From Enterobacteria phage vB_EcoM_IME540, in the sequence record MT150133.1: a stretch of DNA of 64,000 nucleotides, one strand, 5' to 3'. Shown here piece after piece: positions 6,367 through 62,703 of the stretch (within the stretch, counting starts at the first letter, position 1; each line of letters opens with the position of its first letter). The position numbers and the translations under genes were made by a program. The notes under the pieces are model-generated. The model worked only from the letters and a program-made list of their open reading frames with translations, ran no database searches and was not told the origin of the DNA.

Positions 6367-6638
6367 AAATTGGAGGTATACATCATTAAGTAACGGTGTA
6401 TATCTTCATACCCTTCATTAAATTGCTCAATAAGAGTGTCACGTTCATCTTCAGTTAATGACTTAAATAATTTGTTATAAGACAAACCATTAAGTTCCTT
6501 TCCATGTTCATTACGAATACCCAACTCATTCAAAAAGGCAATAAACTCATCACGACGTTGCATGATGTCTTCACAATCCGTTTTAATCAAAATGGAAACA
6601 ATAGTAGCAATTTCGGAAACAATTTCAATTTTAGTCAT
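6363..6638 (-). CDS. asiA: anti-sigma70 factor AsiA
   Basis: 91 aa; matches recalled T4 AsiA (ASILIK, FIAFLNE.G, LI.EFNEG.E...RYL.MYT); SD GAAGAGAA. Confidence 0.93.
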   Translation of the reverse strand: MTKIEIVSEIATIVSILIKTDCEDIMQRRDEFIAFLNELGIRNEHGKELNGLSYNKLFKSLTEDERDTLIEQFNEGYEDIHRYLMMYTSNF

Positions 6639-6943: not shown

Positions 6944-7225
6944 TTAGCTACCAGATTGTTCACGTAATTTCCTTAATTGATATTCAAGAGAGCTGATAAT
7001 TTCTTTATTAGTTGCAATATACATATCACGTAGGAACGGCTTCAACCCTTCCATATTCCCATGGATTGTCTTGGAACTAATATTCTTTATATATTCATGG
7101 TCCAATGCATCCCAAGCTGGTTGGTTGACATAAGTTCCCCAGTTGTCTTCCACCATAACATTAAGACGTTTAATATGGTTAATATGGGCTTCGATTGCAT
7201 CAATCTGGAGTTGTTTAAGATTCAT
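6944..7225 (-). CDS. hypothetical protein (arn-region position)
   Basis: 93-aa ORF in gene string; start overlaps upstream stop (TAATG); T4 Arn is similar in size and position but sequence identity not verified. Confidence 0.6.
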   Translation of the reverse strand: MNLKQLQIDAIEAHINHIKRLNVMVEDNWGTYVNQPAWDALDHEYIKNISSKTIHGNMEGLKPFLRDMYIATNKEIISSLEYQLRKLREQSGS

Positions 7226-8767: not shown

Positions 8768-8788
8768 AAAAAAGAACCCGAAGGTTCC
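8768..8788 (-). terminator. intrinsic terminator (GGAACC-TTCG-GGTTC hairpin plus TTTTTT)
   Basis: GC stem with TTCG loop and T-run on minus strand right after the micro-ORF that follows gene 52. Confidence 0.6.
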
Positions 8789-8893
8789 TTACTTTTTAAA
8801 GTGGGCCGCTATTAAACCTATAGCTAAGCCTGTCGCCAGGCCTAGAATAACAGCAAAGATACAGAGTAACAAGAACTCGACTCCAAGGCTCAT
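8789..8893 (-). CDS. small hydrophobic peptide (34 aa), translationally coupled to gp52
   Basis: ATG overlaps gp52 TGA stop (ATGA); sequence MSLGVEFLLLCIFAVILGLATGLAIGLIAAHFKK is a single predicted transmembrane helix; sub-threshold ORF. Confidence 0.45.
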   Translation of the reverse strand: MSLGVEFLLLCIFAVILGLATGLAIGLIAAHFKK

Positions 8894-11054: not shown

Positions 11055-11103
11055 ATCAATTTCCTCAGTAGATTAATGTTTTGTTATCCGGTCAACGAGA
11101 ACC

Positions 11104-11132
11104 ATTATAACATGATTCTCGAGGTTGTAAAC
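11104..11132 (-). promoter_or_regulatory. early promoter (-35 GTTTAC, 17 nt, -10 TATAAT)
   Basis: Consensus hexamers on minus strand 49 nt upstream of ndd ATG; inverted repeat CGAGAA / TTCTCG brackets the -10. Confidence 0.65.
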
Positions 11133-11820: not shown

Positions 11821-11846
11821 AATCATCTCCATTAGTTGATAGGTCT

Positions 11847-11875
11847 ATAATATCATGATTAATGGAGATGTATAC
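11847..11875 (-). promoter_or_regulatory. early promoter-like element (-35 GTATAC, -10 TATTAT with TGa)
   Basis: Same module and leader (AGACCTATCAACTAATGGAG) as other early promoters; spacer ATCTCCATTA is complementary to leader TAATGGAGAT. Confidence 0.5.
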
Positions 11876-19869: not shown

Positions 19870-19899
19870 TTTATTTTCCTCTCATTTGTTGATAGGGTA

Positions 19900-19929
19900 A
19901 TCTTATCACTACCCTACCATATTGTATAC
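19900..19929 (-). promoter_or_regulatory. early promoter-like element (-35 GTATAC, -10 TAAGAT, TGa)
   Basis: Weaker hexamers; inverted repeat GGTAGGGTA / TACCCTATC brackets the -10. Confidence 0.4.
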
Positions 19930-19942
19930 TGTTTTTTAAACT

Positions 19943-20509
19943 TTATGCAAAATGAATATCAGCATACTCAACGATAAAGCTCTCAGGAACAACCTTAAAG
20001 GTTCCAAGGAATACGATGTTATAGAGCTTAACGCCTTCTTCAACCCATTGGTCTGTGATGTAACCGGACATACTAGTGGTTTCATAAGTCGGACCATACT
20101 TGCAATTGTATTCAAACGGTTTAGGTGAAACGAAAAAGACACCTTTACCCAATTTCCATTTGAAATCAACACCAACATGAGATTGGTCAATAGTTTCAAC
20201 GTCTTGAGCTACTACGCCACGGATATCATTGCTTTCACATACATACCTATCATGGGATTCAACTTCTTCAACTACAGGAGCGATGTATCCGGTAAATTCA
20301 GTCGATTCCAAGAATTTAGCACGCACATAAGCGAATTGAGTTTCAGTCTGGCCATTTTTAGGAATGATACGCACTTTTACTTCAGAATTTTCTACACTGA
20401 CACCTTCTTTAAGTTGGATGCTAACAACTTCAACTAAACGGCCTGCAGCTTTTGAACGAGACTTTTTGGATACACGAACGATACCGCCGATATCGGAAAT
20501 AGTAATCAT
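19943..20509 (-). CDS. hypothetical protein, paralog of 20583..21338 (shared C-terminal domain)
   Basis: 188 aa; C-terminus GYITDQWVEEGVKLYNIVFLGTFKVVPESFIVEYADI aligns with CGWVTDQWVEDGVELLNVVHAGDFSVVPRSAVVNVLN of the upstream gene. Confidence 0.65.
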   Translation of the reverse strand: MITISDIGGIVRVSKKSRSKAAGRLVEVVSIQLKEGVSVENSEVKVRIIPKNGQTETQFAYVRAKFLESTEFTGYIAPVVEEVESHDRYVCESNDIRGVVAQDVETIDQSHVGVDFKWKLGKGVFFVSPKPFEYNCKYGPTYETTSMSGYITDQWVEEGVKLYNIVFLGTFKVVPESFIVEYADIHFA

Positions 20510-20551
20510 AATTTTTCTCTCTTGGTTAAAGGTTTATAATCCATGAGAGCC

Positions 20552-20580
20552 ATTATAACATGGCTCTCGATAAAGTAAAC
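20552..20580 (-). promoter_or_regulatory. early promoter (-35 GTTTAC, 17 nt, -10 TATAAT)
   Basis: Consensus hexamers; 7-bp inverted repeat GAGAGCC / GGCTCTC flanks the -10. Confidence 0.65.
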
Positions 20581-21338: not shown

Positions 21339-21844
21339 AATTTTCTCATTTCAATAAAATCTACAAGTTCGGCATGGGATTTGCGGAACATTACTTGGCG
21401 GCCGCCGATGACAACCTCATCTTCTGGTATTTCGTAAACAGCGAGGTAAAATCCTTTAGAAGATAATTCTTCACGCTCTTCACGAGTGAACCAGCGCATC
21501 ATATCATACTCGCTGGCAAAAGCAAAATGGTAGAGGTTAACAAACCAACCTGGAATATAATCATCAGAGCCTTCATAATCAGACCGTTTCCACTTGGTTC
21601 TAATGGCTTTATTAGAATTTTCTACCAACAACTTATCTTGACCTGGTAGCGGAATATTTTTATTAATGCTATGATGATGCCTAAAATTAGGTCTGTTGAA
21701 ACCTACTTCCAATAACCAACCTTCACTCCACGGGTCCATTGTACTTCTATATGGAGTCATTTGGATACAGAGGTCTCGACGTATTGTTACAGCATCTTCA
21801 TAATCTAGGATACTGAACGATGACTCCACTCGATAAATTTTCAT
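21335..21844 (-). CDS. hypothetical protein (169 aa)
   Basis: ATG MKIYRVESS after SD GAGGAG in conserved leader. Confidence 0.7.
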   Translation of the reverse strand: MKIYRVESSFSILDYEDAVTIRRDLCIQMTPYRSTMDPWSEGWLLEVGFNRPNFRHHHSINKNIPLPGQDKLLVENSNKAIRTKWKRSDYEGSDDYIPGWFVNLYHFAFASEYDMMRWFTREEREELSSKGFYLAVYEIPEDEVVIGGRQVMFRKSHAELVDFIEMRKL

Positions 21845-21871
21845 TTTGTTCTCCTCATGTTGATAGGGTAG

Positions 21872-21900
21872 ATAATATCATGTCATGAGGAGAAGTAAAC
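21872..21900 (-). promoter_or_regulatory. early promoter (-35 GTTTAC, TGa-extended -10 TATTAT)
   Basis: Spacer TTCTCCTCATG is the reverse complement of leader CATGAGGAGAA, which contains the SD. Confidence 0.6.
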
Positions 21901-25962: not shown

Positions 25963-25992
25963 ATAGTACCACAAGCTTCCTTGCCTGTAAAC
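25963..25992 (-). promoter_or_regulatory. early promoter (-35 GTTTAC, 18 nt, -10 TACTAT)
   Basis: Hexamers on minus strand 25 nt upstream of the modA-like ATG; SD GAGGAG. Confidence 0.55.
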
Positions 25993-26561: not shown

Positions 26562-26585
26562 ATGACCTCCAGTGATTTAGAGGTC

Positions 26586-26614
26586 ATTATAACATGAAGG
26601 GAGGAGGTGTAAAA
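26586..26614 (-). promoter_or_regulatory. early promoter-like element (-35 TTTTAC, -10 TATAAT)
   Basis: Spacer ACCTCC is complementary to the SD GGAGGT of the downstream gene. Confidence 0.5.
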
Positions 26615-28236: not shown

Positions 28237-28258
28237 AAAAAAGGAACCCGAAGGTTCC
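28237..28258 (-). terminator. intrinsic terminator (GGAACC-TTCG-GGTTCC plus TTTTTT)
   Basis: Same hairpin sequence as at 878 and 62683; directly after soc stop. Confidence 0.65.
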
Positions 28259-28264
28259 TTATAA

Positions 28265-29058: not shown

Positions 29059-29151
29059 CATTATATTTTTCCTTTTCAATTCATTAGTAAGTTAGATAAT
29101 TATAAACTGTTAGATTAAAGCGAATAAATATTAATTTAACAGGAGGATAAC

Positions 29152-31709: not shown

Positions 31710-31737
31710 TTTTAACTCCTCGTTAGTTGATAGGTCT

Positions 31738-31767
31738 ATAGTATCACTACCATAGACCGTTGTAAAC
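31738..31767 (-). promoter_or_regulatory. early promoter (-35 GTTTAC, 18 nt, TGa-extended -10 TACTAT)
   Basis: Followed by leader AGACCTATCAACTAACGAGGAG; spacer GGTCTAT is complementary to leader ATAGACC. Confidence 0.6.
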
Positions 31768-32719: not shown

Positions 32720-32745
32720 AAAAACAAAAAAGGAGCCGAAGCTCC
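32720..32745 (-). terminator. intrinsic terminator (GGAGC-TTCG-GCTCC plus TTTTTTGTTTTT)
   Basis: Hairpin begins at the gene 41 stop codon and is followed by a long T-run. Confidence 0.65.
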
Positions 32746-34185
32746 TTAAAATTTGATAGATGCTGCTAAATCGTCCAAATCACTTCTATTAACACGCGTC
32801 TGTCGATTGACCTCGGCCTGGCGATTCATCTCACCTGTAGCCTCACGAACAGTGTTCACTGGGCCTGGGTTGGAATCATCTTCAACTTCGTACCAACGTT
32901 GATTTCCTTTCTTAACGCCAATCTTAAATTTGTTGTAGTAGCTCTTATCGCCATAACGAGATTTAAGCTGCTTAACCATCTGCATACCCATCTGAGCGAA
33001 CTCTTCTGTCTCGACCACACCCAACATGAAGTCTGCAGTATGTGCAATACCAAAGGATTCAGCAATATCGGCCATATCGATTTCGGCTGCAACGTTCGCA
33101 CCACGAGTAGTCTGGGCTGCAGTCCACAACAGTAATTTCTTCTCTACTGCAAGTCCACGTAGTTCTTCAGCAACCATCTTAATCAATCCGTAACTGTTTT
33201 CAGAGAAAACTTTCGTACGAGACGATGCACAGATAGCCAAGTAGTCAACGATAACGACCTGTGGGACAAAGTTTTGTTTGAGCTTGTATTCGTTTAATAA
33301 TGCACGGAATGTATCGGCATTAGCACCGCCAGTAGGATACTGTTTAATCTTTAAACGACCCAAGGTAGCAGTTGAACGCCATTTATCCATCTTAGCTTTA
33401 TATTCAGGCCAAGAGACGTGACCATCGTCAATATCGTCTAGTGATACATCCAGAAGGTTGGCATCGATACGCTTAGCACATACTTCCTCTGCCATCTCCA
33501 TGGAGATATAAAGAACATCGTAACCCGATTGAAGATAATCAGCAGCCAATGAACACAGACCCAGAGACTTACCTACGTTTGTTCCTGCCAACAATACGTT
33601 TTCAGTACCAAACTCAGCACCACCCTTGGTAATCTTATTCAGAATATTAAGACGGAATGGAACCTTACGTGCTTTATCAGAATAACTTTTGAATCGTTCT
33701 TCATAGTCATCCATCCAGTCATGACCTAATTCAGAATCGAAACAAATCGATAATGCATCACGCATGATATCTGGAATAGCACCAATACCTGGAAGTTTTC
33801 TATTTTGTTGCTCAACTGGAAGGTCGGCATTAGTTTGGATTTCAATGATTTTTGAAGTTGCATTATACATCGCTGCTTTCTGAACGTATTTCTCCGTCTC
33901 TTTAACCAACCATTCTTGGTCTTCAGGCCCGGAGTTCAGCGAACTTAAAAGCTCTTTAGCGCCTTGATGTTCAACTTCTGAAAGCGTACTGTTATCTAAT
34001 GCAATGCTCAATGCGTTCTTAGAAGGCACTGCATTATATTCATTGACGTGTTTTTTAATTTCTTTGAAAAGGGTCTTTGCAGGACCCTGGTCAAAATAAG
34101 AATCATTCATATAAGGCCAGACCTTAGTGAAATAATCACTATTGCCTAGCAGTTGAGCCAAAATAGTTTCTACCACTTCCACCAC
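32746..34185 (-). CDS. 41: replicative DNA helicase gp41 (DnaB-like)
   Basis: 479 aa; matches recalled T4 gp41 over long stretches (WLVKETEKYVQ, NATSKIIEIQTNA, KARKVPF.L.ILNKITKGGAE.GT, NVGKSLGLCSLAADYLQ, YISMEMAEEVCAKRIDAN). Confidence 0.97.
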   Translation of the reverse strand: MVEVVETILAQLLGNSDYFTKVWPYMNDSYFDQGPAKTLFKEIKKHVNEYNAVPSKNALSIALDNSTLSEVEHQGAKELLSSLNSGPEDQEWLVKETEKYVQKAAMYNATSKIIEIQTNADLPVEQQNRKLPGIGAIPDIMRDALSICFDSELGHDWMDDYEERFKSYSDKARKVPFRLNILNKITKGGAEFGTENVLLAGTNVGKSLGLCSLAADYLQSGYDVLYISMEMAEEVCAKRIDANLLDVSLDDIDDGHVSWPEYKAKMDKWRSTATLGRLKIKQYPTGGANADTFRALLNEYKLKQNFVPQVVIVDYLAICASSRTKVFSENSYGLIKMVAEELRGLAVEKKLLLWTAAQTTRGANVAAEIDMADIAESFGIAHTADFMLGVVETEEFAQMGMQMVKQLKSRYGDKSYYNKFKIGVKKGNQRWYEVEDDSNPGPVNTVREATGEMNRQAEVNRQTRVNRSDLDDLAASIKF

Positions 34186-37330: not shown

Positions 37331-37863
37331 TTATTCACCTTATTTTCAATATATTCATTCAGACGTTTTAATTCTACCATATCGACGTTAAGCAAGTTAT
37401 TATGGCCGTCGTGATTTAAGATTTTAAACACGTTTTCAAAACATGTTTCATATTGCCGGATAGTTAGGTTGAACTCATCTTTGGTTAATTTAATAAGGTC
37501 ATCTTCAAAGTCTTTATCCAGTGGATTACGGGTTAAAATAACCTCAATAATATTGAATTCAGATTTAAACCCTTTCCAATCTTCCAGTTCTACATAAGGG
37601 TCCATTTCACCACGAAGGAATCCAGAGTAAACAATATTACTAGGATACCCACGGTCTAAGATGTAGACAAAATTAGGGTCTAAAAACTTATACAACGTCT
37701 CGACTAAAGCCTTGTCATTATCAGTCCCTAATGAAATGCATTTGCCATTAATCTTTTTAGGGAAATCAATAAGACGATATTTCTTATCAGATAAAAGTGA
37801 TTCAATTAAAGTAGACTTCCCGGAATTATCCGGGCCGTCGATAACAATGATTTTTGGTTTCAC
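37327..37863 (-). CDS. P-loop kinase, thymidylate-kinase-like
   Basis: 178 aa; Walker A IVIDGPDNSGKST and TMPK-like LDRGYPSNIVYSG; GTG start overlapping the upstream stop (GTGA); no early in-frame ATG. Confidence 0.65.
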   Translation of the reverse strand: MKPKIIVIDGPDNSGKSTLIESLLSDKKYRLIDFPKKINGKCISLGTDNDKALVETLYKFLDPNFVYILDRGYPSNIVYSGFLRGEMDPYVELEDWKGFKSEFNIIEVILTRNPLDKDFEDDLIKLTKDEFNLTIRQYETCFENVFKILNHDGHNNLLNVDMVELKRLNEYIENKVNK

Positions 37864-40893: not shown

Positions 40894-43605
40894 TTAAAAG
40901 TCGAACATATCAAATAATGTTGCTTTTTTCTCGTAGTCGATTTTAGCAGACTCAGTAAAACCGGTCAGAGGTTTGATAAAGGTCTTTTGGAACAGTACGT
41001 TGTAGTCCATCCAACGGAGGACTTGGTCACGAATCTGAACCGGAAGTTCAATACCTGACGGCCATGCCATACAAGCTTCACCAAACGGGTTGCCTTCTTT
41101 AAGTGGCAGTACATATACCTTTTCACCATCAACGATACGAGGCATAGTCAAATCACCTGCAGAAGCACGCATGTAAGCTAAGCAACCTTTGATGTGGTAT
41201 GGACATTTAGAACCCGGGAATCCACCTTCATTATATTTCTCGATGTTGTTAGCACTGGATACTGCTGCAATGCTTACATAATCGAGTTCGTTAAATTCCT
41301 TATTAAACTGTTTGAAATATTCTTGCAAAGATGCCTCGCCTTCCTGAAGCATACGACGGATACATTCCTTCAGAGCTTTCTGAACTGCTTTAGGTGTACT
41401 TGATTTCTGAGTTTCGAGACCCATGATTTTCAAGTGTGGTTCAGCATAACGAGTACCTTCCATGTCCCAAACGTTAAGTGCATAACGTTTCTTGCCTGTC
41501 CAGAATCCACCAAGGCCTTTAGAACCAAGTGGAGGACCTGCGATAGCTTCTCGGTCCATGAACATCAAGTGTTGTTTGTTGTTCATGTATTCGCACATCT
41601 CACGGAAGCCTGCATCAATAGCTGGTTCCATACGTTCACGTGCAAATTTATCTAAGAAGTCTACCCAGTGGTTAGTATCACGGAATTTATCTTCGCCTAC
41701 TTTATTGATGATTGCATCTGCCTTAACATAAATGGAGTCAGTATCACCGTAGAGCACGAACTTCTGGTTTTCAGTCTTACACACGCTATTCAGATATTCG
41801 TTAACCTTACGTTCAATCCATTGGAGGGCCATTTGACCAAACAATGTGATTGCAGTTGCGTTCCTGAGGTCATAGTAACGGAACCATACGTTACCAAGTG
41901 CACCATAAAGGGAGTTGATAAGCAACTTACGGTTAATCTGAGCAGTGTTACCTGCAACTTCAGTGAGCTCGGCTTTCTTCAACATTTCTCTTAAAGAAGG
42001 CGCTGACAGTGCTTTAATCTGGGCTTTTATTTCGTCAGAGAAGTCAAAACGATAATCGATATCCAGTGGACTATCAACTGAGAGATTAGGATTTTCCAAT
42101 GCTTCTTTAATTAACTCACCATTACGTTGAGCTGCAAGCATGTAACCTTTATGTTCTTTACGCTGCAAGAATACCTTGGTGATTTCTGTCGGAATCACAC
42201 CTTCACGGTCTTTATAGTACATCATGCCGTTAGGAGAGCAACTGTAGGTGTCGCTAGGACGCTGAGCAGTTCCGGCAATATATTCATGTATCGGTGCGTT
42301 AGCGAATGTCCCTGCGATGGTCTCTGGGCTTATATTCACTTGTCGAATGATACTCGGATACAGAGATGTAAGGTCGAAACTCATTACATATTTGTAAGCG
42401 TTAGGAATCGGTTCCTTAACGAAAGCACCAGGATAAGGTTGGACCACGTGCGAACGAGCTTGTGGAATTACCTTGCCTTGTTCTTTAAGGCTATTAAAGA
42501 TAATAGCGTCCCAAGTCTTAATTGGGCTGAACACCGACTGAATCTGCATCTTGGCATAATAACCCATGTCCAAACTCAGAAGAATGAACTGACGCTTCAT
42601 ATCAATCTGCACTACACGATATACGTCGATAATGTTATAGGAAATATATCGTTGGTGGTTCGTCTCACGTAACTTGGAGATTGGGCCATCATATTTCAAC
42701 TTACCTACTTTCAATTCATATTCAGAAACATAATCCAGAGAATAAGAAGGCTGGTTGGTGAAGCTGAATTTTTTATAGAGGTCGATATAATCCAGAACAG
42801 AGATACCGAACAATGTAATGATTTCACGAGCACCGTACATGTTCTCAATAACTTTAACACGAGTTTTACGATGTGGGCTTAATCGCTTAGCAGTGTTCTC
42901 ACCGAACAGATTTTTCAGACGGTTATAAACGTACGGTACGTCAAACGACTCAACGTTCCATCCAGTCAAAATCACAGGAGTTTTCTGTTGCCAGAAATTC
43001 AAGTACTCAAGCATCATTTCTTCTTCAGAATTAAACGGAAGATAAACGATTTTGTCAATGATTTCCTGTGGAACTTCGTCACCACCTTCGTCTTGGAGTT
43101 TCTCAGCGATTTTAATCGACCACTCTTCAACAGTACCATAAGGCGAAACTAAAAGGTCGAATACATAGAATTTATCGTCAATCGAGTCGTAGTGGGTAAT
43201 GGCATCGATAGGATGTTTAGCCTGAGCTGGTTCAGGGAATCCATCAGGAGATGTTACCTCGATGTCGAAGTTAGCAATACGAATCTTAGAAGAATCATAT
43301 TTGATTTCTTTACGATAGGTATCAGACAAATAGGCTAATTTATAGTCGTCCATACCCAGGGCTTCGAGACCCATATCATCCATACGTTTCATCCATTGGG
43401 ATGCATCACGCATAGAATCGAATTCTTTCTTAACACAACCCTTACCATAGATATCAATGTATTTTACGGCTTGCTCTGGATTAGCATGCATAAACATTGT
43501 AGGCTTGTATGGAACTTCACGACTACGTTCGTTACCATTTTTATCGATGTAACGTTCGAGAATATTATCACCGATTTGTTCGACTGTCAAATAGAATTCT
43601 TGCAT
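40894..43605 (-). CDS. 43: DNA polymerase gp43 (family B)
   Basis: From ATG MQEFYLTVEQIGDNILERY; long near-identical stretches to recalled RB69/T4 gp43 (FDIEVT exo motif, SLYPSIIRQVNISPETI, YGDTDS, KKRYALNVWDMEG); track ORF extends 20 codons further upstream. Confidence 0.97.
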   Translation of the reverse strand: MQEFYLTVEQIGDNILERYIDKNGNERSREVPYKPTMFMHANPEQAVKYIDIYGKGCVKKEFDSMRDASQWMKRMDDMGLEALGMDDYKLAYLSDTYRKEIKYDSSKIRIANFDIEVTSPDGFPEPAQAKHPIDAITHYDSIDDKFYVFDLLVSPYGTVEEWSIKIAEKLQDEGGDEVPQEIIDKIVYLPFNSEEEMMLEYLNFWQQKTPVILTGWNVESFDVPYVYNRLKNLFGENTAKRLSPHRKTRVKVIENMYGAREIITLFGISVLDYIDLYKKFSFTNQPSYSLDYVSEYELKVGKLKYDGPISKLRETNHQRYISYNIIDVYRVVQIDMKRQFILLSLDMGYYAKMQIQSVFSPIKTWDAIIFNSLKEQGKVIPQARSHVVQPYPGAFVKEPIPNAYKYVMSFDLTSLYPSIIRQVNISPETIAGTFANAPIHEYIAGTAQRPSDTYSCSPNGMMYYKDREGVIPTEITKVFLQRKEHKGYMLAAQRNGELIKEALENPNLSVDSPLDIDYRFDFSDEIKAQIKALSAPSLREMLKKAELTEVAGNTAQINRKLLINSLYGALGNVWFRYYDLRNATAITLFGQMALQWIERKVNEYLNSVCKTENQKFVLYGDTDSIYVKADAIINKVGEDKFRDTNHWVDFLDKFARERMEPAIDAGFREMCEYMNNKQHLMFMDREAIAGPPLGSKGLGGFWTGKKRYALNVWDMEGTRYAEPHLKIMGLETQKSSTPKAVQKALKECIRRMLQEGEASLQEYFKQFNKEFNELDYVSIAAVSSANNIEKYNEGGFPGSKCPYHIKGCLAYMRASAGDLTMPRIVDGEKVYVLPLKEGNPFGEACMAWPSGIELPVQIRDQVLRWMDYNVLFQKTFIKPLTGFTESAKIDYEKKATLFDMFDF

Positions 43606-53258: not shown

Positions 53259-53297
53259 AATAATTTCCTCAGTTTTAAATTTATAATCCGTAGGACC

Positions 53298-53327
53298 ATT
53301 ATACTCTGGTCCCAAGAGTTTGTAAAC
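53298..53327 (-). promoter_or_regulatory. early promoter (-35 GTTTAC, 18 nt, -10 TATAAT)
   Basis: Consensus hexamers; -35 overlaps upstream stop codon; inverted repeat GGACCA / TGGTCC brackets the -10. Confidence 0.65.
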
Positions 53328-53666: not shown

Positions 53667-53960
53667 TCAGCTGTAACGATAGCACTCGTTTGATTTACGT
53701 TTTGCAACTCGATGAGAAGTATTGTAATCAGGTTCATCATCGTTGTAAACATCTTTTTTCAGCTTTCTTACTTCTTTACGAAGCTGTCGATTCATTTCAT
53801 TCTTAACTTCAGAATCAACGCCTCTCATACGTTTCCACTTGTCAGAACGGAAGATATTTTCTTCAACCAAATCCTGACTTACGCCGTCTGGTGCTTTACG
53901 ACGTCCGGAATAATAAAAATCTTTTACAGACAATTCTTTACGACGGATAGTTTTACCCAT
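53667..53960 (-). CDS. hypothetical basic protein (97 aa)
   Basis: K/R-rich ORF in gene string. Confidence 0.55.
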   Translation of the reverse strand: MGKTIRRKELSVKDFYYSGRRKAPDGVSQDLVEENIFRSDKWKRMRGVDSEVKNEMNRQLRKEVRKLKKDVYNDDEPDYNTSHRVAKRKSNECYRYS

Positions 53961-54390: not shown

Positions 54391-54419
54391 AATGTTCTCC
54401 TCATGTGTTGATAGGATAG

Positions 54420-54448
54420 ACTATAACACATGAGGAGAGGAAGTAAAC
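54420..54448 (-). promoter_or_regulatory. early promoter (-35 GTTTAC, TGt-extended -10 TATAGT)
   Basis: Spacer CTCCTCATGTG is complementary to leader CACATGAGGAG, which contains the SD. Confidence 0.55.
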
Positions 54449-61208: not shown

Positions 61209-61234
61209 GATAACCTCCAGTAGTTGATATGTCT

Positions 61235-61263
61235 ATAGTATCATTTCTACTGGAGATGTAAAC
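61235..61263 (-). promoter_or_regulatory. early promoter (-35 GTTTAC, TGa-extended -10 TACTAT)
   Basis: Spacer CTCCAGTAG is complementary to leader CTACTGGAG, which contains the SD. Confidence 0.6.
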
Positions 61264-62597: not shown

Positions 62598-62634
62598 TAT
62601 ATTCTCCATTTCACTCAGTAGATTTGATAGGTCC

Positions 62635-62663
62635 ATAATAACATGCTCTACGAGAGTGTAAAC
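62635..62663 (-). promoter_or_regulatory. early promoter (-35 GTTTAC, 17 nt, -10 TATTAT)
   Basis: Directly downstream of terminator at 62683; leader GGACCTATCAAATCTACTGAG. Confidence 0.6.
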
Positions 62664-62682
62664 TCTTTTTTGCACTAAACCC

Positions 62683-62703
62683 AAAAAGGAACCCGAAGGT
62701 TCC
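62683..62703 (-). terminator. intrinsic terminator (GGAACC-TTCG-GGTTCC plus TTTTT)
   Basis: Same hairpin sequence as at 878 and 28237; starts in the stop codon of the upstream gene. Confidence 0.65.

Follow-up and report, generated by a model that had tools for sequence, protein, structure and literature searches.

The closest described relatives of the elements studied here are the PeSL cassettes of T4-type phages, early promoters accompanied by a stem-loop, which have been reported from RB49 and phi1 (Arbiol et al. 2010, PMC2839356) and from PST/T4 and nt-1/KVP40, including PmSLs at middle promoters (Comeau et al. 2014, PMC4122927). In a reporter assay, a PeSL stem-loop lowered expression as a strong terminator does (Arbiol et al. 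2010, PMC2839356); a role in ending or attenuating upstream transcription has been proposed, and the cassettes have been implicated in gene shuffling and indels in hyperplastic regions (PMC2839356, PMC4122927). In the account given by Arbiol et al. (2010, PMC2839356), Repoila et al. had in 1994 found early-promoter elements with weaker, AT-rich stem-loops at the internal-protein loci of T-even phages. For the Dhakavirus/JS98 group, the PeSL literature contains only PeSL-like sequences near gene 43. A second relative is found in T4 e, soc, 49, and I-TevI and in Aeh1 mobE, where an inhibitory hairpin covers the ribosome-binding site and encloses a promoter (Uzan and Miller 2010, PMC3014915). Here, we analyzed a 64-kb stretch (the window) of Enterobacteria phage vB_EcoM_IME540 (sequence record MT150133.1), in which an inverted repeat at positions 20545 to 20568 lies in the early promoter of a motB homologue. 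It belongs to a set of repeats that are probably RNA hairpins of two classes, built into sigma-70 early promoters and formed on read-through RNA only.

Early promoters of the window and the motB hairpin

The window covers the early region of a T4-like myovirus. Over 4 kb around the motB hairpin, the phage is 97.9% identical to Salmonella phage vB_SalM_ABTNLsp5 and 94 to 96% identical to IME08, MX01, and QL01; IME08 is classified as Straboviridae, Tevenvirinae, Dhakavirus, and the window phage is Dhakavirus-like. Beyond ~6.4 kb the genes are on the minus strand, and all promoters discussed here are therefore read on that strand, where early promoters have the form GTTTAC-N17/18-TATAAT. Generic consensus scans of the window were uninformative both for sigma-70 promoters (56 found versus 56 expected) and for terminators (14 versus 13), and early promoters therefore had to be called with a phage-specific weight matrix. 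On the minus strand the matrix called 23 early-promoter-like sites; the plus strand had almost none. We dropped the site at 37632 as doubtful (its -10 box is TGAAAT and no start codon follows) and analyzed the remaining 22, each named by the coordinate of its -35 box, with the start site taken as 7 nucleotides (nt) after the -10 box. Relatives comprised 75 IMG/VR loci with four flanking proteins, plus T4 and IME08; over all loci the matrix matched the sense strand 329 times and the antisense strand once, and 184 unique promoter units were collapsed to 82 clusters.

About half of the 22 early promoters hold one hairpin arm in the spacer between the two boxes. In class A, the stem surrounds the -10 box and leaves the ribosome-binding site untouched (5 or 6 of the 22 promoters). 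In class B, the 5' arm pairs with the Shine-Dalgarno (SD) sequence (5 of the 22, at 61263, 54448, 26614, 21900, and 11875). Some 10 promoters are without a stem, including those of motA (8749), asiA (6710), and an srd-like gene (25253). The earlier note, made from the letters of the window, had cited seven inverted repeats, and all seven are present on the minus (coding) strand inside early promoters; sites at 11824 to 11870 (class B) and at 19890 to 19919 and 31733 to 31758 (class A) add to its list. Its description of the arrangement as a general design of early units was too broad, since the SD type occupies about 5 and the -10 type 5 to 6 of the 22 window promoters, and the two types account for 12 and 15 of the 82 clusters, respectively. 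An Rfam search of the whole window matched no family.

The motB promoter reads GTTTAC-tttatc-GAGAGCCAT-GTTATA-ATGGCTCTC-atgg on the minus strand, with the -35 box at 20575 to 20580, a 17-nt spacer, the -10 box TATAAT at 20552 to 20557, and the ATG of motB at 20507 to 20509. The class A hairpin (20545 to 20568) is a perfect 9-bp stem with the 5' arm GAGAGCCAT at 20560 to 20568, the loop GTTATA, and the 3' arm ATGGCTCTC at 20545 to 20553, which begins inside the -10 box and finishes at about +1 (z = -3.96; none of 200 shuffles was as stable). The layout is that of a PeSL. An AT-rich attaata precedes GTTTAC-N17-TATAAT at 20580, the stem-loop overlaps the -10 box, which lies in the loop and 3' arm, and the SD and start codon of a small or accessory gene follow at the 3' end, as they also do at ndd, cef, sp, and small open reading frames (ORFs). 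We rejected a canonical intrinsic terminator at this site, which has no U-tract and is absent from the output of the terminator scan.

To compare the repeats with chance, we paired each spacer with its own -10-to-ATG sequence and with that of every other promoter. Among the 22 window promoters, spacer/downstream duplexes reached -11.6 kcal/mol when matched versus -7.8 kcal/mol when mismatched (z = -6.4; P < 1e-5), and the own downstream sequence ranked first or second of 22 for 11 of the 22 spacers. Eight of the 22 promoter-to-ATG segments folded with z scores of -3.6 to -7.6, with none of 200 dinucleotide shuffles as stable. The expectation that the hairpins exceed shuffled controls was thus borne out for these eight segments (z of -3.6 or lower) and only marginally so at two cited sites, 53327 (z = -1.8) and 11132 (z = -1.4). 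Five of the 15 perfect hairpin helices of at least 9 bp in the window straddle an early promoter, with 1.2% of positions eligible (P = 6e-7). Across the 82 clusters, matched pairing again exceeded mismatched pairing (z = -13.7), and 27 clusters passed a two-way 5% criterion (15 class A and 12 class B; fewer than 1 expected). We also took a census of helices with the promoter motifs held fixed and the remainder shuffled within segments, which was too noisy at 7 bp and was redone at 8 to 10 bp. Family-wide, this census counted 12 start-straddling helices of at least 10 bp whose 3' arm falls on the SD, against 0.6 expected, and 7 whose 3' arm falls at -10/+1, against 0.1 expected; it contained no SD-covering helix of that length lying wholly inside the local transcript.

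The matched-pairing, helix-census, and window-enrichment tests rule out chance or composition as the source of the repeats. We accordingly give almost no credence to an explanation in which the complementarity is a by-product of composition or promoter motifs, or in which the palindromes are operators of dimeric proteins. Mismatched spacer/SD pairs do already average -7.8 kcal/mol, and segment-wise shuffles leave a nontrivial background at 7 to 8 bp, but matched pairs beat mismatched ones by 6 to 14 standard deviations and covariation extends outside the SD core. The mismatch types described below are strand-asymmetric, and a common protein operator was rejected because the arm sequences differ at every promoter; they also covary.

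Stems on the Shine-Dalgarno sequence and around the -10 box

To estimate what the stems would do to ribosome binding, we calculated how much free energy it takes to unfold the start-codon region (positions -15 to +3) in two modeled transcripts, a local one starting 7 nt after the -10 box and a read-through one starting 60 nt upstream of the -35 box. Freeing the SD-to-AUG region at the five class B sites is predicted to cost 1 to 4 kcal/mol on local RNA but 14 to 24 kcal/mol on read-through RNA, a difference of 13 to 21 kcal/mol, whereas at all other promoters the cost shifts by no more than 5 kcal/mol between transcript classes. At the four class B sites whose 5' arm lies in the spacer, the effect is lost once the spacer is shuffled. 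The earlier note had proposed that local transcripts lack the 5' arm and read-through transcripts carry both, which holds with the arm upstream of the -10 box or, in the case of the hairpin ending at 26587, upstream of the start. Its further proposal that read-through RNA folds the SD away is supported at the five class B sites (14 to 24 kcal/mol) and fails at the flagged motB stem and the other stems that bracket a -10 box (differences of 0 to 5 kcal/mol).

One class B hairpin is that of a 58-amino-acid (aa) ORF (promoter 54448), at 54396 to 54438, where TCTCCTCATGTGTT pairs with AACACATGAGGAGA over 14 bp (z = -7.6; read-through minus local opening cost [ddG], +21.1 kcal/mol). At motB.2 (promoter 21900), the hairpin spans 21849 to 21894 and pairs the spacer sequence TTCTCCTCATG with CATGAGGAGAA of the SD region over 11 bp (z = -5.4; ddG, +16.4), leaving the -10 box (21872 to 21877) in the loop; the ATG is at 21842 to 21844. 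Helices of 11 bp are likewise present at 61213 to 61257 before a 174-aa ORF (promoter 61263; ATCTCCAGTAG / CTACTGGAGGT; z = -4.05; ddG, +14.8) and at 11824 to 11870 before a 36-aa ORF (promoter 11875; CATCTCCATTA / TAATGGAGATG; z = -3.8; ddG, +12.8). The promoter of a ModB-like ADP-ribosylase gene (26614) carries a variant at 26562 to 26587 (z = -3.97; ddG, +14.9). A spacer pairing CCTCC/GGAGG had been cited at this promoter and does exist, but the predicted dominant hairpin is ATGACCTCTA / TGGAGGTCAT, whose 5' arm lies outside the spacer and is made up of the discriminator preceded by the last 2 nt of the -10 box; its 3' arm extends over the SD as far as the ATG, and shuffling the spacer changes nothing here. 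All five have their 5' arm within the spacer or discriminator, 5' of any plausible inferred start site. A search of the window seeded on SD-covering hairpins, with promoters ignored, returned only the class B units as strong coding-strand matches.

All class B SDs contain GGAG, the target motif of RegB. Two promoter subfamilies can be distinguished among the 22: one has TATAAT-GG..., class A stems, and GAGGAAA-type SDs without GGAG, and the other has TA(C/T)TAT-AGACCTATCAAC and SDs with GGAG and takes in every class B unit with a spacer arm. A weak bipartite stem at 62612 to 62658 (CACTC..GTAGA / TCTAC.GAGTG; z = -1.3) pairs the spacer with an SD-like GAGTG located 5' of the likely real SD, with a canonical terminator just upstream. 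On the plus strand, in a region of minus-strand genes, a 12-bp hairpin (CTGTTAGATTAA / TTAATTTAACAG, loop with aataaata) at 29107 to 29142 stands just before GAGGAtaacATG of a 66-codon ORF; it may be a masked start of the late-promoter type, or spurious.

The class A stems behave differently from those of class B. The SD-opening ddG at the flagged motB site is 1.2 kcal/mol, and because the opening cost hardly changes, this stem does not mask its ribosome-binding site. Opening-energy calculations found no indirect sequestration of the SD by class A stems, with motB as the sole exception. There, the end of the 3' arm (...GCUCUC, 20545 to 20553) is complementary to the SD GAGAGA (20514 to 20520), and the SD is tied up once the spacer is shuffled (10.8 versus 4.0 kcal/mol; z = -3). 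At this promoter only, the 5' arm behaves as an anti-anti-SD that keeps the CUCUC of the 3' arm off the GAGAG of the SD.

The other class A hairpins are located at 11097 to 11120 in the promoter of an ndd-like gene (11132; GAGAATCAT / ATGGTTCTC with one U.G pair, -10 box at 11104 to 11109), at 53291 to 53314 in promoter 53327 of a 109-aa gene (TGGGACCA / TGGTCCTA), at 19890 to 19919 in the cef promoter (19929; TGGTAGGGTAGT / ATTACCCTATCA, 12 bp with G.U pairs; z = -4.4), and at 31733 to 31758 in the spackle (sp) promoter (31767; GGTCTATGGTA / TACTATAGACC; z = -3.65). The 109-aa gene matches a T4 gene at 67% identity; from its position it is putatively 55.2, and we call it 55.2-like. A weak, interrupted stem is present at 53710 to 53739 (CGATGA-GAA / TTC-TCATCG; z of about 0 for the whole segment) in promoter 53750 of a conserved 43-codon ORF. 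A further site, at 25969 to 25990, belongs to a PeSL subclass (z = -2.2). The promoter-like sites 53750 and 56133 appear within or at the very end of the upstream coding sequence, with no separate intergenic space; the homologous sites in T4 are at 41261 and 47452.

The class A stems are followed by the tails AUGGAUUAUAAA, UUGACCGG, and UACGGAUUAU and not by the U-tract that comes after the GC-rich stem of a terminator, which sets them apart from canonical intrinsic terminators. A conserved box, GGAT(T/A)ATAAA, lies 3' of the stems at ~20533 to 20543, 53279 to 53289, and 11085 to 11093. It is kept upstream of the 55.2-like gene in related loci (L017 to L035) where a terminator or promoter-less hairpin replaces the promoter, and our guess is that it may be an RNase E-type site or a leader element.

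The surroundings of the promoters differ according to whether a stem is present. Stem-bearing promoters are free of terminators, with the upstream stop codon 0 to 4 nt before the -35 box, and promoters behind terminators of the GGAACCTTCGGGTTCC-T6 type have no stems; such canonical terminators precede promoters 62663, 28226, and 8749. Family-wide, stems were found in 1 of 16 clusters with an upstream terminator versus 26 of 66 without (P = 0.016 by Fisher's test). Intrinsic terminators with an early promoter occupy the same place as the stems of both classes, between a stop codon and the next gene, and are nearly exclusive with promoter-embedded stems, which differ from them in having no U-tract, in being less GC-rich, and in overlapping the promoter instead of preceding it. 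Near-identical terminator-plus-promoter modules occur at ~62680 to 62700, 28241 to 28260, 8770 to 8790, and 32730 to 32750; the version ggaaccttcgggttcc-T5/6-gggtttagtg(c/a)aaaaaag-GTTTAC stands before both the 62663 gene and motA (8749), and the modules correspond to the PeSL subclass in which the stem precedes the promoter.

The short distance to the stop codon raises the question of translational coupling, in which the SD would stay shut until a ribosome reaching the end of the upstream gene unwound the 5' arm of the class B stem; read-through RNA would then be translated together with the upstream gene and not silenced. In 9 of 12 class B clusters, the first paired base of the 5' arm stands 8 to 13 nt beyond the stop codon (class A, 5 to 11 nt in most clusters), and with the stop codon 1 to 6 nt before the -35 box, the arm is within or at the edge of the footprint of the terminating ribosome. 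We nevertheless consider coupling distinctly unlikely. A ribosome at 8 to 13 nt would open at most 0 to 3 outer base pairs of helices of 11 to 14 bp and leave most of each helix standing, because the partners of the SD lie in the outer to middle portion of the 5' arm. Coupling also needs no dedicated strong promoter inside the hairpin, and the absence of the device behind terminators fits insulation equally well.

Covariation in relatives and the folded strand

T4 itself carries the pattern, with a class A stem at PmotB, a class B stem at PmotB.2 (TTCCTCGGTTAG / CTACTGAGGA), and a 13-bp stem at Pcef. The last, on the minus strand of the T4 locus at ~6580 to 6630, is a perfect helix of ATCAGTAGTTGAT and ATCAACTACTGAT whose 5' arm occupies the spacer and whose 3' arm comes just past +1, before a short upstream ATG. 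A 35-nt promoter-hairpin cassette, GTTTACAAACTCTTGGGACCAGAGTATAATGGTCC, is identical at 53293 to 53327 of the window and at 7181 to 7215 of the T4 locus (both on the minus strand); it precedes the 55.2-like gene here and motB in T4, and the motB arms of this phage are different. By its sequence, this looks like an exchange of cassettes between unrelated genes.

More generally, the cassette type changes between orthologues, which may have a class A or class B stem, a terminator, or a middle promoter. Upstream of the 55.2-like gene alone, the stem around the -10 box occurs with at least 12 different arm pairs, such as GGACCA/TGGTCC, GAGAGA/TCTCTC, GAGGAC/GTCCTC, GGGGTCAT/ATGACCCC, TAGCCAT/ATGGCTA, and GGAGATTT/AAATCTCC. 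In one relative (L035), the -10 box of this promoter has been lost, yet the hairpin GAGGAC-ctagt-GTCCTC is retained, and a promoter-less hairpin is likewise retained in two cef orthologues (L009 and L010). In T4-type phages, a canonical terminator, AAGGGCttcgGCCCTTTTTT, takes the position of the class A stem upstream of the 55.2-like homologue. Distant T4-like genera (L030, L033, L036 to L048, and L050) have a MotA-box-like middle promoter, TTTGCTA...TAAGAT, at this gene, and its -10 box is bracketed by an 8- to 12-bp stem with G.U pairs, like the PmSLs of nt-1.

The arms differ between promoters and change together. In an alignment of 17 class A sequences, 98.3% of the cells are paired and 6 of the 7 pairs vary on both sides, with a covariation score of 0.73 versus 0.335 after shuffling (reached in 0 of 500 shuffles); when the partners are slid by 1 to 3 columns, only 36 to 47% pair. 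Outside the loop-closing pair, every departure from pairing in this alignment is a G.U, and the motB series GGGACCA/TGGTCCC, GGGGCCA/TGGTCCC, GGGGTCA/TGACCCC includes a G.U intermediate. For class B, with at least 11 distinct arm families, RNAalifold gave an 11-bp helix across 15 units, in which five compensatory pairs surround a CUCC/GGAG core that never varies. Among 45 unique helices with at least 8 Watson-Crick pairs, single mismatches were G.T or T.G in 13 cases versus A.C or C.A in 2 (P = 0.007). This excess indicates that the folded strand is the sense strand, and the simplest reading is that the folded sense strand is RNA.

The mobility of the cassettes invites a different interpretation, namely that the repeats work at the DNA level, as conserved PeSL modules of promoter and palindrome whose homologous or hairpin-mediated exchange shuffles small early genes, and that any RNA structure is incidental. 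The 35-nt cassette shared by 53327 and T4 PmotB, with the different arms at motB of the window, and the switching of cassette type among orthologous genes are in its favor, and mini-circles and indels at PeSLs have been documented (Arbiol 2010, Comeau 2014). Recombination, however, requires identity between cassettes and not complementarity inside one, and here the arms differ between cassettes and covary within them; the asymmetry of G.U over A.C picks out the sense strand, and the class B 3' arms sit precisely on the SD. We therefore find it unlikely that recombination is the sole function of the repeats, although it is compatible with an RNA function. Taken together, the compensatory changes, the G.U excess, the survival of hairpins after promoter loss, and the near-exclusivity with terminators point to a sense-strand RNA structure acting on read-through RNA.

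Transcript origin, translation, and comparison with known systems

The probable mode of action follows from where the arms lie. The 5' arm would be upstream of the transcription start, in the spacer or (26587) in the end of the -10 box and the discriminator, and because it lies upstream, the local transcript cannot form the stem. A transcript entering from the upstream gene would carry both arms and fold, so that the hairpin would mark read-through RNA. In class B, with the SD region as the 3' arm, ribosome binding would be blocked on read-through RNA, and the gene would be translatable essentially only from the transcript of its own early promoter; its synthesis would therefore end when early promoters shut off. 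In class A, where the SD is left free, the stem would most likely be an attenuator or a hairpin that forms or stabilizes the 3' end of the upstream message, functionally interchangeable with a terminator, which is the role proposed for PeSL stem-loops. The class A role is the least certain because the U-tract is missing.

Several observations weigh against this view of hairpins on read-through RNA. For this phage, the start sites and the occurrence of read-through are inferred, as is folding in vivo. With the arm only 5 to 13 nt past the stop codon, the stem may be opened in part by a terminating ribosome, and the outcome could differ under co-transcriptional translation. Some stemless promoters also abut an upstream stop codon (58691 and 40891), and with about 10 of 22 promoters stemless, the device is not obligatory. 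Over the full segment, the cited class A stems at 53327 and 11132 barely beat shuffles, and the effect of class A hairpins on upstream RNA, given that they have no U-run, is the weakest link. The mismatch test has small counts, with some stems related to each other, and its G.T bias would also fit a hairpin in sense-strand DNA.

A related proposal is that the stems control RNA decay, shielding GGAG SDs on read-through (middle-mode) RNA from the phage endoribonuclease RegB in class B and, in class A, providing a stem-loop next to AU-rich sequence at which RNase E would process polycistronic RNA into stable units. The presence of GGAG in every class B SD, the inhibition of RegB by secondary structure, and the retention of the GGAT(T/A)ATAAA box after class A stems in promoter-less orthologues all fit. 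GGAG SDs, however, are also found at many stemless promoters, the RNase E part relies on a consensus sequence, and the proposal overlaps with an RNA hairpin on read-through transcripts instead of replacing it. As a separate explanation we regard it as very improbable.

The hairpins on read-through RNA suggest a broader hypothesis, which we offer tentatively and with more doubt than confidence. In T-even-like phages, translation of a sizable share of early genes might be licensed by the promoter from which an RNA originates, with the spacer as an anti-SD and with read-through or middle-mode RNA silent and nuclease protected. If so, this would be a general and evolvable rule that enforces immediate-early-only synthesis of products such as the ModB-like ADP-ribosylase and MotB.2. 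Only promoter-born RNA would then be exposed to RegB, which could explain why RegB spares middle transcripts with the same GGAG sites.

If class B works as predicted, the promoter spacer holds a second, RNA-level code in which translatability depends on transcript origin. Tightly packed early genes would gain insulation and an off-switch cassette by cassette, with terminators unneeded, and PeSL cassettes would be recast as RNA regulatory elements under strong structural selection, beyond their part as recombination sites. The idea also offers a testable account of two puzzles in T4, the early selectivity of RegB and the poor expression of certain genes from delayed-early read-through RNA. For genome annotation and phage engineering it carries a warning, since the ribosome-binding site of a neighboring gene can be silenced or unmasked when an early promoter is shifted or removed.

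Compared with the known systems, the class A layout is already published as the PeSL architecture. Both have an AT-rich stretch, -35 and -10 boxes, and a stem-loop between or overlapping the boxes, followed by the SD and ATG of a small early gene; both have G-T pairs in the stems, and in both the cassettes recur; PeSLs move between genes, as the cassettes here may also do. The flagged hairpin at 20545 to 20568 fits the PeSL subclass whose stem-loop overlaps the -10 box. The PeSL papers stress DNA recombination, and their RB49 stems are polyG/polyC and their PST/T4 stems just upstream of the promoter. What our analysis adds is the exclusivity with terminators and the covariation and G.U evidence for a constraint at the RNA level. 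Unlike class B, none of the five stem positions in those papers pairs with the SD, and translation is never discussed.

An early-promoter hairpin that hides the ribosome-binding site, as in class B, appears to be new: no description of early-promoter/SD pairing was found in the literature searched, which included Nolan 2006 and whose coverage stopped short of the 2003 T4 review and Repoila 1994. The nearest parallel is T4 e, soc, 49, and I-TevI, where the SD or AUG is likewise hidden in long transcripts and the gene's own transcript is without the 5' strand. The earlier note had drawn this comparison for e, soc, and 49, and it is apt for class B except that the known cases use late (gp55) promoters (TATAAATA), which delay expression, and are single-gene curiosities. 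The class B hairpins of the window contain no TATAAATA. They have a sigma-70 early promoter inside, with the -35/-10 spacer itself as the 5' strand, and occur in ~15% of early-promoter clusters (12 of 82). Their predicted timing is the opposite of that at e, soc, and 49, namely, immediate-early only.

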